From the IMG/VR virus record IMGVR_UViG_2713896771_000019: a DNA stretch of 4,952 nt. One strand, written 5' to 3'. A program made the position numbers and the translations under genes. Of this stretch, positions 2,006 through 4,952 are shown piece after piece (positions within the stretch are counted from its first letter, which is position 1; every line of letters starts with the position of its first letter). A model generated the notes under the pieces. It did no database searches. It was not told the DNA's origin and saw only the letters and a program-made list of their open reading frames with translations. This DNA is from a virus (taxonomy: Duplodnaviria; Heunggongvirae; Uroviricota; Caudoviricetes).

Positions 2006-2201
2006 GATGCACCTCCTGACGAATACGGGCGGCGAATACCATCACGCAGCCATCAGGAGATTGCTGGCGGGCTTCCTGTTCGCTGGTGGCCTCGATGGTA
2101 ATCACGCGCGGCTGTGCCGTGCTCAGGGCGATAAAACGCCAGATGTATTTATTCAGGTTGTGCGAGTCCCGCCCTTGCGGGTGTGTGGTATGATTTCTCA
2201 T
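1995..2201 (-). CDS. Small protein (68 aa), putative Icd-like (P4-type host cell division inhibitor-like), first gene of the minus-strand operon
   Basis: This is the C-terminal in-frame part of the 308-aa track ORF 1995..2921. The internal ATG at 2201-2199 is preceded by GAGGT. Manual translation: MRNHTTHPQGRDSHNLNKYIWRFIALSTAQPRVITIEATSEQEARQQSPDGCVMVFAARIRQEVHHVQ. The W-x-F-x-A ... EARxx ... FAAR pattern matches my recollection of Icd-like proteins in P4-like prophages; this is unverified. Confidence 0.45.
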   Translation of the reverse strand: MRNHTTHPQGRDSHNLNKYIWRFIALSTAQPRVITIEATSEQEARQQSPDGCVMVFAARIRQEVHHVQ

Positions 2202-2296: not shown

Positions 2297-2377
2297 ACTG
2301 GATTCCAGTATAATCACCAAGTGGAATCCACTTCAAGCATTTTGTTTTGGTCTTTTTCGTGTATACTGGATTCCAGT
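2297..2377. promoter_or_regulatory. Divergent switch region with three palindromic operator-like sites (consensus TGGAWTCCA)
   Basis: ACTGGATTCCAGT at 2297-2309 and again at 2365-2377 are identical 13-bp palindromes. GTGGAATCCAC at 2321-2331 is an 11-bp palindrome with the same half-sites. TATAAT at 2309-2314 and TATACT at 2362-2367 abut sites 1 and 3 on the plus strand. The region lies between the divergent 59-aa ORF and the minus-strand operon. Confidence 0.5.
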
Positions 2378-2973: not shown

Positions 2974-3162
2974 TTAGTGAACTGCCTCGCAGCTGTCTTT
3001 CCATGCCAGAACTTCGGATAAAGACCAGCCAACGGAACGACCGCCGAGCTTACGCCGTGATGGGAATTGTCCGGCTTTTTCCAGGCGGTACCGACATGAG
3101 CGGCTCAGGCCTGTAAGTTGCTGACATTCTTTTTCACGTATAAAGCGATCTGTGCTTAACAC
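2974..3162 (-). CDS. alpA: AlpA/Vis-family phage transcriptional regulator (62 aa, MerR-like HTH)
   Basis: Track ORF; the start codon is GTG at 3162-3160, preceded by a strong SD AAGGGGG (4 nt spacer). The motif LTGLSRSCRYRLEKAGQFPSRRKLGGRSVGWSLSEVLAW matches the AlpA-family signature (HTH ... FP ... LG.RSVGW...E...W). It lies downstream of, and in the same orientation as, the integrase, as in P4-like elements. Confidence 0.8.
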   Translation of the reverse strand: MLSTDRFIREKECQQLTGLSRSCRYRLEKAGQFPSRRKLGGRSVGWSLSEVLAWKDSCEAVH

Positions 3163-3192: not shown

Positions 3193-3240
3193 ATTGGGTG
3201 GGTTATTGGGTTGGGTTGTGTCGGATTGTGTCAGGGTGTT
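3193..3240. repeat. G/T-rich degenerate repeats (TTGGGT x3, TTGTGTC x2) in 10-bp register, upstream of the alpA start
   Basis: TTGGGT at 3194, 3206 and 3211; (G/A)TTGTGTC at 3215-3222 and 3225-3232. The region is 30-80 bp upstream of the alpA GTG on the minus strand, so it falls in the alpA promoter region. Confidence 0.45.
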
Positions 3241-3408: not shown

Positions 3409-3456
3409 AAATCAGACTTATAGGGAGTTAATCAGAAATAATCATAGATAATCAGA
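3409..3456. repeat. Helically phased (W)AATCAGA repeats
   Basis: ATCAGA at 3411-3416, 3431-3436 and 3451-3456, exactly 20 bp apart, with ATCATA at 3441-3446 in the same 10-bp register. Confidence 0.55.
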
Positions 3457-3457
3457 T

Positions 3458-3517
3458 TTGTTCCAGATTGTTCGCCGTTGTTCGTCGTTGTGTCTCGTTG
3501 TTTCACGTTGTGTCCGT
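3458..3517. repeat. Six tandem 10-bp repeats TTGT(T/G)(T/C)CNCG directly downstream of the int stop
   Basis: Units: ttgttccaga, ttgttcgccg, ttgttcgtcg, ttgtgtctcg, ttgtttcacg, ttgtgtccgt, contiguous with perfect 10-bp register. The array ends ~20 bp from the int TAA (3539-3541). Confidence 0.7.
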
Positions 3518-3538
3518 TCTGAAAAATCGCGAAAAAAA

Positions 3539-4789
3539 TTATATTTCTCTGGCTATTGGCAGTGTGGTTACGTTTTCGTGAGCACCTGCCAGTATCTCTA
3601 ATCGCTCTGTCCACATATCCAGCGCATTACGTTTCGCATCGATATAACGGGAGTGGTTATAGACTCGTTGCATCCCTGGCATCTGGTGAGCGGTGAGTTG
3701 TTCGACAATATGTGGATCCACGCCTAAATCGTTCAGCATCGTGGTAAACGTGCGCCGTATATCGTGTAGTGACCAGTGCGGATGGTTTAATTTTTTGTGC
3801 GTGAATCTGCCGTATTGCGACACGCTGGCTTCCTGTTTCAGTTCCCCGAGTAATAGCCCTGTGTGCCTGTTCTGCTCCACCAGCTGTGTGACGAACGGCA
3901 AAATGCTTTCCGGTATTGGCCTGAATATGGCGACCTTCGTTTTGCTGTGCTCTTTCGGTACTGTCCAGAGCATTTCCTTAAAATCCCACTCCCTGATCTC
4001 CGACAGCCTCAGTTCTCCGGTCCGGCAGCCGAACACAATCAGGAGGCGGATTAGTGCGCTGTAGTAGGGCGGGAATATTTTTTTATCCAGCGCCTGTAAT
4101 AATTCGCTCAGTTCTTTGTTGCTCAGCACGCGTTCGCTTATGCCCGGCTTTTTGCCAACGTCCACCACGTTGAGATCATCCAGAACGTTACTGACTGCGT
4201 AGCGACGTTTACGGCAGAACTTAAGCGCCTGTTTACACGCCTGCATCATGTGGCCAGATGTTACGGGTGATTTTTTGCGTATCCGGTCAAAACAGGCCAG
4301 CCAGTGACGTAACTCGCATTTATCCAGTGGCATATTGCCAATATGCTGTATGACGTGATTATTAAGGCGGCTTTTCAGGCATACGTAATCGACACGGTTT
4401 TCCTTTACGTGCATTTCCAGCCAGTAGCTGATCGCATCGCCCACCGTTACCGGCTTTAGTGCTTCCTGTATGGAGTAATTAAGCTCATGGCGTGGATTTT
4501 TTCCTTCTGCCAGCCATGCGCGACACTGTGCTGCTTTTTCCCTGGCTGCTTTCAGGCTCAGATCAGGATAATTTCCCAGTTTCAGGCGTTCCGGTGATAC
4601 CTGGCGTCCTGTTCCTGCCCTGTAGGTGAAATACCAGGTTAACAGGCCGCTGGTGGAGTGTCTGATACTCAGATTTCCACCGTCATTAAGAAAGGTGGTT
4701 TTTTGGGCTGGTGTGCCGTTGATTTTTCTTAGCTGCGTGTCGCTCAGTTTGTTAAGTGCCCTGCTCATAATTTTGAATCCGGTCATCAC
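3539..4789 (-). CDS. int: P4-family tyrosine site-specific integrase (416 aa)
   Basis: Track ORF. The N-terminal arm-binding-like region (LSDTQLRK...FLNDGGNLSIR...YFTYRAGTGRQVSPERLKLGNYPDLSLKAAREKA) resembles P4-type integrases. The C-terminal catalytic region carries the tyrosine-recombinase signatures GCRTGELRLSE, HDIRRTF and a Tyr in RVYNHSRY. The first codon at 4789 is GTG; alternative ATG starts lie at 4786 and 4768, none with a clear SD. Confidence 0.9.
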   Translation of the reverse strand: MMTGFKIMSRALNKLSDTQLRKINGTPAQKTTFLNDGGNLSIRHSTSGLLTWYFTYRAGTGRQVSPERLKLGNYPDLSLKAAREKAAQCRAWLAEGKNPRHELNYSIQEALKPVTVGDAISYWLEMHVKENRVDYVCLKSRLNNHVIQHIGNMPLDKCELRHWLACFDRIRKKSPVTSGHMMQACKQALKFCRKRRYAVSNVLDDLNVVDVGKKPGISERVLSNKELSELLQALDKKIFPPYYSALIRLLIVFGCRTGELRLSEIREWDFKEMLWTVPKEHSKTKVAIFRPIPESILPFVTQLVEQNRHTGLLLGELKQEASVSQYGRFTHKKLNHPHWSLHDIRRTFTTMLNDLGVDPHIVEQLTAHQMPGMQRVYNHSRYIDAKRNALDMWTERLEILAGAHENVTTLPIAREI

Positions 4790-4790
4790 A

Positions 4791-4814
4791 ATTAACTACA
4801 CCATTAACTACACC
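4791..4814. repeat. Perfect 12-bp tandem duplication ATTAACTACACC x2, immediately upstream of the int start
   Basis: Copies at 4791-4802 and 4803-4814 are identical and abut the int start codon region (4786-4789). Confidence 0.7.
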
Positions 4815-4830
4815 GATCATTGCACAAGGG

Positions 4831-4860
4831 GGTACAACGTGGAACAAGCTGGAACAAGAA
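4831..4860. repeat. Three tandem 10-bp repeats GG(T/A)ACAA(C/G)NT upstream of int, the inverse of the array downstream of int
   Basis: Units ggtacaacgt, ggaacaagct, ggaacaagaa. Read on the minus strand they give CTTGTTCCAG / CTTGTTCCAC / GTTGTACC, sharing the 9-mer TTGTTCCAG (plus 3458-3466; minus 4857-4849) and CACGTTGT (plus 3504-3511; minus 4841-4834) with the 3458-3517 array. Confidence 0.65.
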
Positions 4861-4952
4861 AAATTGCAATAGACTTAAAAATCAAAAACATAATGAACAA
4901 CGTGGCACATTATGAAACAGCAAAAAACACTAATTTATAAAAATCCGCTATT

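Follow-up and report, generated by a model that had tools for sequence, protein, structure and literature searches.

Which protein reads the three palindromic sites that stand between a small rightward gene and a leftward replication operon in a Gram-negative phage satellite? The question is raised by a 4,952-nucleotide stretch of viral DNA (IMG/VR record IMGVR_UViG_2713896771_000019; 'the window' hereafter means this whole stretch), whose gene content marks it as the integrase/alpA end of an enterobacterial phage-inducible chromosomal island (PICI) or capsid-forming PICI (cf-PICI). The sites lie upstream of a plus-strand open reading frame (ORF) of 59 amino acids (aa), and the genes around them also encode the satellite activator AlpA and an Icd-like protein. 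We find that the sequence of the sites changes in step with a short predicted beta-strand of the 59-aa protein, and in step with neither of the other two proteins. From these patterns we put the probability at roughly 0.7 that this control region is a three-site switch between divergent promoters, read by the 59-aa protein acting as a ribbon-helix-helix repressor.

The three sites and their promoters

We designate the sites O1, O2 and O3, as putative operators. O1 (2297-2309) is the inverted repeat ACTGGATTCCAGT (6+1+6). The same sequence forms the core of O3 (2365-2377), where the symmetry extends to TACTGGATTCCAGTA (2364-2378, 7+1+7), and O2 has the core GTGGAATCCAC (2321-2331, 5+1+5) within the extended palindrome AAGTGGAATCCACTT (2319-2333, 7+1+7). 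Each site is symmetric about one central base; none is a strict even palindrome. The sequence-only reading of this DNA had described two ACTGGATTCCAGT palindromes and one GTGGAATCCAC palindrome at these core positions, spaced 23 and 45 bp from centre to centre, and both the sites and the spacings are borne out. Exact matches to TGGAWTCCA number three in the window, all within one 81-bp region, and a search of the window allowing one mismatch found no additional site. Across 200 dinucleotide-preserving shuffles of the window, the mean was 0.06 matches and the maximum 1, and none reached three. The idea that the palindromes arose by chance, or have a purely structural role (as hairpins or recombination scars, say) and bind no protein, can draw on the general frequency of short palindromes and on nothing further. 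It is vanishingly improbable given these shuffles, and given that the sites keep their positions across genera while all three copies change sequence together, and that within a specificity class they are more conserved than the spacers between them.

The sites sit on promoter elements. A consensus scan of the region returned one promoter-like site, on the minus strand and facing the operon that runs from the Icd-like gene to a RepA-family helicase gene. Its -35 hexamer is TTGAAG (2331-2336, read 2336 to 2331) and its -10 hexamer, 18 bp away, is TATACT (2307-2312, read 2312 to 2307). O1 overlaps the last 3 nt of this leftward -10 as well as the predicted leftward start (~2300), and O2 fills the -35-proximal part of the leftward spacer, with a one-base overlap with the -35 itself. 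On the plus strand, a second TATACT (2362-2367) is the predicted -10 of the rightward promoter that drives the 59-aa ORF, and O3 overlaps both this hexamer and the predicted rightward start. The 16-nt module TATACTGGATTCCAGT occurs as an inverted repeat (copies at 2297-2312 and 2362-2377), so that the unit made of a -10 plus an operator points both ways. The earlier proposal that sites 1 and 3 abut the -10-like hexamers TATAAT and TATACT thus stands for site 3 and needs correction for site 1. There, the plus-strand TATAAT (2309-2314) is not conserved in relatives and is a by-product of the near-symmetry, the relevant hexamer being the minus-strand TATACT.

The same layout recurs well beyond this element. 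We fetched 11 related loci from E. coli and 55 from other Enterobacterales genomes, and an automated search found three related sites in 45 of these loci, at -31, at -76, and at -98 to -101 or -111 from the ATG. The layout is fixed across Escherichia, Xenorhabdus, Yersinia, Pectobacterium, Kosakonia and other genera. In its general form the site is GTG-N5-CAC, with the first base of the proximal site constrained by the -10. We compared 43 distinct control regions of this kind. In every one, the site nearest the ORF shares bases with a TATAnT -10 (TATACT in 35), and in 41 the middle site is followed directly by the TTGA of a minus-strand -35. The O2-O3 distance is 45 bp in 40 regions; the O1-O2 distance is 35 bp in 18, 22-23 bp in 13 and 25 bp in 10. 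Cognate 9-mers occur at 23 per kb in the 125-bp control region versus 0.29 per kb elsewhere in the locus (~80x, 45 loci). Within one specificity class that spans many genera, column conservation is 0.92 for O1, 0.94 for O2 and 0.97 for O3, versus 0.70 for the O1-O2 spacer. This conserved register between sites and hexamers supports the earlier operator and divergent-promoter reading, and we infer that the three palindromes are operator sites between two back-to-back promoters.

Host-factor binding was considered as well. A CRP site has the form GTGA-N6-TCAC, and the arm spacing of GTG-N5-CAC led us to reject a CRP-like site. A search of a phage collection with the control region returned no match, and the region therefore has no annotated counterpart in those phages.

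Which protein reads the sites

The sequence-only reading had named no cognate regulator. A candidate can now be put forward, as the operator core co-varies one-to-one with a predicted strand of the 59-aa protein. The N5 core differs between elements, and all three copies within an element change together. Besides the GGAWTCC-type of the window, the core types are TCAGC, AAATA, AATCG, TGGCC, TAAGA, TCGGA, GAACA, AACAC and TTGAA. What the core tracks is a run of eight residues after a conserved N-x-K-S, in a predicted DNA-reading beta-strand (residues ~9-17 of the window's protein, K-S-Q-K-L-Q-A-R-A), and 14 strand motif classes pair with distinct N5 cores. When non-identical proteins share an operator core, identity averages 0.95 over the strand and 0.78 over the rest of the protein. 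When the operator cores differ, the values are 0.41 and 0.59, and 0 of 769 such pairs have a strand motif in common. A strand that lies above the rest of the protein within a class and below it between classes carries the signature of a specificity determinant.

Particular residues are suggestive of a recognition code. Classes with the predicted outward residues Q12 and N14 go with GTGAATCGCAC and GTGAATAGCAC, which have near-identical cores despite different inward residues. The K12 classes have GTGG at one arm in five of five cases, and the Q-M-T-T-V strand class pairs with GTGAAATACAC operators. Two cassettes can also stand side by side: one E. coli island (L011) carries them in tandem, at 1447-1626 and 2188-2367, pairing QSVTARIA with TAAGA and QMTTVRIP with AAATA. 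Six genomes have at least two modules, and their types differ except in one probable duplicate contig; this fits diversification into immunity groups, in a small sample.

AlpA, encoded 600 bp away, might seem a natural reader of the sites. It is a DNA-binding helix-turn-helix protein, and in EcCICFT073 it activates satellite genes and its own promoter (PMC6092414). Yet the window's AlpA recurs with 100% identity in three other loci (L001, L003 and L007). Each of these has an operator core of its own, distinct from the window's, so that four operator types go with one AlpA sequence, which argues that AlpA is not the specificity determinant. The converse pattern is also seen. L007 and L010 share both the 59-aa protein and the operators, and their AlpA proteins and integrases are unrelated; the operators and the 59-aa protein also occur with no AlpA gene nearby (among L071-L073). 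We consider it extremely unlikely that AlpA binds the three palindromes.

The Icd-like protein fares little better. Its gene adjoins the sites, ~100 bp from O1, and its families (phrog_6196 and phrog_1743) are labelled 'transcriptional repressor' in PHROGs. That label is an unverified annotation, however, and in E. coli loci with seven operator types the Icd-like proteins are 91-97% identical, while L007 and L010, with the same operators, have Icd-like proteins only ~51% alike over the matched part. That this protein is the repressor acting at the sites is very unlikely. These comparisons rule out both AlpA and the Icd-like protein as the source of specificity, the PHROGs label notwithstanding.

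The 59-aa protein keeps its operators through much larger exchanges. An identical copy is found in three satellite backbones whose replicases are an AAA_25 helicase, a DUF927 primase and a D5_N/DUF5906 primase. These backbones also differ in their integrases and late genes; two have AlpA genes and the third a Bro-N gene. Each of the three has three TGGAWTCCA sites, and none elsewhere in 20 kb. The possibility that the sites are replication-origin iterons was rejected, as they overlie promoter hexamers and it is the regulator, rather than the replicase, with which they co-vary. Because the neighbours fail to co-vary, the operators and their gene would form a mobile cassette of ~250 bp, like a lambdoid immunity region. 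Taken together, the 59-aa protein, not AlpA, is most probably the cognate regulator of the sites.

What kind of protein is it? The 59-aa protein is a member of the YlcI/YnfO family: its residues 9-50 score 72.3 bits with the NF041551 model, whose cut-off is 30, and its relatives carry the annotation 'YlcI/YnfO family protein'. The PHROGs entry for the family reads 'unknown function', and our literature searches on YlcI/YnfO (DUF3950) found no functional study; those on PICIs with ribbon-helix-helix proteins, on PICIs with operators and on satellite antisense RNAs likewise returned nothing on function. An AlphaFold model built with 32 homologues (pLDDT 84) has helices at 19-28 and 35-58 after an extended N-terminal segment. 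Between the helices, the turn G32-E33-S34 is invariant in an alignment of 11 sequences; in a second alignment of 32, all sequences keep E33, at least 90% keep G32, and several have T in place of S34. A G-x-S/T/N turn is typical of the ribbon-helix-helix fold, and E. coli K-12 YlcI, which has the same ribbon-helix-helix pattern, reads G-S-G-N at this position.

Sequence profiles place the protein less firmly. No curated ribbon-helix-helix Pfam family scored over threshold. PF07704 was the only match (15.8 bits against a cut-off of 28.3), with weak matches in 8 of 32 family members. The family has no match to the Arc or Mnt Pfam entries at E <= 1, and a profile search of PDB sequences gave chance-level matches only. 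Among structural matches, ribbon-helix-helix antitoxins rank best. The fold is thus predicted to be ribbon-helix-helix by structure modelling rather than by sequence membership.

These matches bear on another reading, that the 59-aa protein binds the sites in some capacity other than life-cycle regulation, either as an antitoxin with a partner toxin or as a centromere-binding protein of the ParG kind. Besides the antitoxin matches, it could cite a weak match of four family members to a ParB C-terminal ribbon-helix-helix model, and a small ORF that lies 57 nt downstream of the 59-aa gene in some relatives. In the window, however, no ORF stands between the 59-aa gene and the terminator at 2678-2703, leaving no adjacent, co-transcribed toxin gene. 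No ParA-type ATPase is encoded in any of the loci, the C-terminus of the protein is a short basic tail and not a toxin-binding domain, and two of the three sites lie on the divergent replication-operon promoter and not on the 59-aa gene's own. We therefore regard this role as improbable.

Longer and more distant members of the family were also seen. Some members reach 101-108 aa (L002 5976-6281, L069 6250-6555, and in L028 and L049). In these, a probably helical insertion of ~42 residues precedes the basic tail that is conserved at the C-terminus, and might be an oligomerisation or partner-binding module. In lambdoid prophages, a YlcI/YnfO gene stands divergently beside HNH and small-terminase genes (L067 4252-4446, the K-12 DLP12 prophage; L070 23983-24168, in EDL933), and the family may regulate packaging operons there. 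The three-site architecture is not obviously shared by the region upstream of K-12 ylcI.

The proposed switch, its candidate antisense RNA and the satellite

We propose that dimers of the 59-aa repressor would bind the three 11-13-bp GTG-N5-CAC sites through paired beta-strands. Occupancy of O1 and O2 would block the leftward promoter and keep the replication operon silent, and occupancy of O3 would give negative autoregulation of the 59-aa gene. The operators and the beta-strand would together make an exchangeable specificity, or 'immunity', cassette. In relatives, the leftward operon continues into capsid and packaging genes. Induction of such satellites depends on AlpA, and it is the helper phage that sets off AlpA expression (PMC6092414). 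The alpA gene is convergent with the 59-aa gene, and a scan found no canonical minus-strand terminator between the two; we therefore speculate that AlpA-driven read-through could hinder synthesis of the repressor and bypass the operators.

Several points weigh against this repressor model. The rightward promoter has no recognisable -35, and what lies upstream of its -10 reads as a T-rich tract. The O1-O2 and O2-O3 distances follow no obvious helical phasing. Most relatives have imperfect palindromes, often with an asymmetric core (the core of the window type is symmetric), and asymmetric cores leave the stoichiometry per site open. Note also that the operators and the gene are adjacent, and their association could partly reflect co-inheritance; the near-invariant flanks and the joint change of all three sites suggest that this is not the whole story. 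Finally, published work on satellites describes a required activator, AlpA, and reports no repressor (PMC6092414). On that account, the 59-aa protein may be a modulator and not the master switch.

A second layer of control may adjoin O1. The DNA that separates O1 from the Icd-like start codon is highly conserved, and here the plus strand is predicted to encode a constitutive antisense RNA of ~79 nt (~2200-2280), as judged from RNA structure and from promoter and terminator features. Its proposed promoter is an extended -10, TGgTATGAT (2186-2194, plus strand; hexamer TATGAT at 2189-2194), which lies inside codons 3-6 of the Icd-like gene. TAnnnT is kept at this position even where the encoded residues differ (TATGAT, TATGCT, TAGACT, TATCAT, TACTAT and TAAGAT). 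The RNA would form helix 1 (2201-2208 with 2229-2236), helix 2 (2210-2214 with 2222-2226) and, at 2237-2271, a terminator hairpin that runs into GTTTGCATT, a T-rich tail with no counterpart on the minus strand. The RNA is complementary to the start of the Icd-like transcript (leader, Shine-Dalgarno sequence and AUG), and would block translation of residual transcripts of this first operon gene, adding a post-transcriptional layer to the operators.

Comparative folding favours the plus strand. The window's own plus strand has a folding energy of -36.3 kcal/mol (z = -5.6). With 51 sequences as input, RNAalifold arrives at -34.0 kcal/mol and 25 pairs for the plus strand versus -5.6 kcal/mol and 12 pairs for the minus strand, and 192 alignment cells are G-U pairs on the plus strand that would be C-A mismatches on the other. 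In an alignment of 35 sequences, 91.3% of cells pair, against 36-48% with slid partners; compensatory changes occur in 15 pairs, and the covariation score was reached by 0 of 500 shuffles. A weak resemblance links the RNA to RF00043, the Rfam family of the R1162-like plasmid antisense RNA; its 28.8 bits (E = 0.053) fall short of membership, for which the gathering score is 55. Our searches found no paper on the ~79-nt RNA, and no Rfam family matches it above threshold.

A bolder claim would be that the operators, the ribbon-helix-helix gene and the antisense RNA together make up the 'master repressor' or immunity system that has been missing from the picture of Gram-negative PICIs and cf-PICIs. 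Such a system would keep the replication and packaging operon off while the island is integrated, in at least 14 exchangeable specificities, and would be flipped by helper-induced AlpA driving convergent transcription through the repressor gene into the operon. We hold this only tentatively, as a possibility that is rather doubtful at present. If it is true, the 14+ specificities could be immunity or incompatibility groups among co-resident satellites.

The surrounding genes fit the satellite assignment. The tyrosine integrase gene int (3539-4789), alpA (2974-3162; PF05930, E = 3e-18) and the replication module are co-oriented on the minus strand at one end of the island, which is the PICI/cf-PICI layout. 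The Icd-like gene (1995-2201, minus; NF033153, 70.4 bits; same annotation in relatives) comes first in the leftward operon, the rest of which (1-1994, minus) holds three small ORFs, one of them DUF4222, and a RepA-family helicase gene. This last is of RSF1010 type (Pfam AAA_25; 'helicase RepA family protein' in relatives); it ends at 1253 on the minus strand and is cut by the end of the window. Among the main genes, the 59-aa ORF (2398-2577) is the only one on the plus strand, and a terminator-like hairpin followed by a T-run (2678-2703, plus) lies downstream of it. A second hairpin, GGCGGC...GCCGC then TTTTTTT (2810-2834, plus), stands between the 59-aa gene and alpA; it came to light solely through a chance-level match to MicX, in which it formed the terminator, and could stop rightward transcripts before alpA.

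The closest complete E. coli relative matches 92% of the window at 93% identity and continues with SSB, ProQ, capsid, protease, portal, connector, HNH and terminase genes. Its capsid and packaging gene set is that of a capsid-forming PICI (bioRxiv 10.1101/2022.09.08.507074). Our assignment of the window to the integrase/alpA end of a PICI or cf-PICI follows from the gene order together with these capsid and packaging genes, whose counterparts would fall beyond the window. Other carriers of the identical 59-aa protein have different late regions. The module is common: similarity to a 451-bp region of the window places it in 1331 of 5426 complete E. coli genomes. The locus of the strain 'clone D i14' carries the module and is probably the reference PICI EcCIDi14, as judged by an IS110 flank mentioned in the literature (PMC10111431). 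Guessed coordinates for two other reference islands, EcCICFT073 (CFT073) and EcCIEDL933 (EDL933), were discarded, both stretches being lambdoid prophages.

Further repeats and RNAs were noted around alpA and int. The alpA-int spacer holds 10-bp-periodic direct repeats (3193-3239 and 3429-3518) made of GTTGTGTC-like units, with TAATCAGAAA in 2.8 copies. These repeats, which flank the alpA promoter region, could be AlpA sites, integrase arm-type sites or bent DNA. Upstream of int, near the island end (4787-4926), CACMATTAACTA occurs twice at 12-bp spacing and TGGAACAAGC about twice at 10-bp spacing, with a third related 30-nt copy at 4897-4926; these are likely arm-type or attachment-site elements. 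The int-alpA RNA (RF02996) scores above its gathering threshold in four related loci (L012 5966-6038, L015 5893-5961, L039 5838-5906 and L052 5451-5519) and has no match in the window even at E <= 1. The P4-type immunity RNAs C4 and isrK, which are reported for some other Gram-negative PICIs (PMC10111431), likewise have no Rfam match in the alpA-replication zone of the window even at E <= 1.

Significance and known systems

In the paper that founded the field, the presence of a global repressor in Gram-negative PICIs was called 'unclear', and their difference from the repressor-based islands of Gram-positive hosts 'a mystery' (PMC6092414). A later survey described the islands as essentially unidirectional, with integration, Bro and replication zones, and listed Bro proteins and P4-type RNAs as their immunity devices; the module presented here is not described in it (PMC10111431). 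Our analysis therefore offers a candidate, open to direct test, for the repressor that seemed to be missing from Gram-negative satellites: a widespread, divergently transcribed small protein with its own putative operators on the promoter of the replication operon. It also suggests a first plausible function, sequence-specific operator binding, for YlcI/YnfO (DUF3950), and adds a conserved candidate antisense RNA that is not in Rfam. The natural pairing of protein and operator specificities could serve as a data set for a recognition code or as a source of orthogonal repressor parts.

Switches in which a small ribbon-helix-helix repressor acts on divergent promoters are well known. In the immI region of phage P22, the ribbon-helix-helix repressors Arc and Mnt act at the divergent Pant and Pmnt promoters. 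The module resembles this system in having a proposed repressor of ~50-60 aa, putative operators on core elements of back-to-back promoters and predicted regulation of its own synthesis. It differs in that Arc binds as a tetramer to one 21-bp operator, whereas here there are three sites of 11-13 bp, 22-35 and 45 bp apart. The controlled operon is an antirepressor gene in P22 and a satellite replication module here, and the two have no relationship at the sequence level.

Plasmid pMV158 offers a likeness for the two layers together. There, CopG and the antisense RNA II exert dual control of the repB replication operon, through a small ribbon-helix-helix repressor and a short constitutive antisense RNA that covers a translation start, both of which are predicted here. 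However, copG is co-transcribed with repB, whereas the repressor gene here is divergent; the antisense target here is the Icd-like gene at the head of the operon and not a replication gene, and the element is an integrated satellite. The IncQ plasmids R1162/RSF1010 share further features. They have a RepA helicase and a 75-nt countertranscript (RF00043) over the leader of repA, and the satellite operon encodes an RSF1010-type RepA-family helicase. The satellite leader weakly matches RF00043 over its whole length, including a shared CUAACCACCAAC motif, with the same order of hairpin, small hairpin, Shine-Dalgarno sequence and AUG. Unlike a true family member, it scores 28.8 bits against 55, and 0 of 20 related loci reach the gathering score.

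The three operators of the lambdoid phages (OR1-OR3, between PR and PRM) provide an architectural parallel, with divergent promoters and an exchangeable repressor-operator cassette of many specificities. The lambdoid repressor is a helix-turn-helix protein, in contrast, and binds 17-bp operators in an ordered, cooperative manner. Stl of the SaPIs and Rpr of Gram-positive PICIs are also helix-turn-helix proteins, whereas the fold here is predicted to be ribbon-helix-helix. They are larger repressors that are inactivated by complex formation with specific helper-phage proteins, while induction of the Gram-negative islands is reported to need AlpA (PMC6092414). What the SaPI Stl/Str and Rpr systems share with the present module is their place in the element, as a divergently arranged pair that separates the integrase from the replication module; the Gram-positive systems keep their islands silent (PMC6092414).

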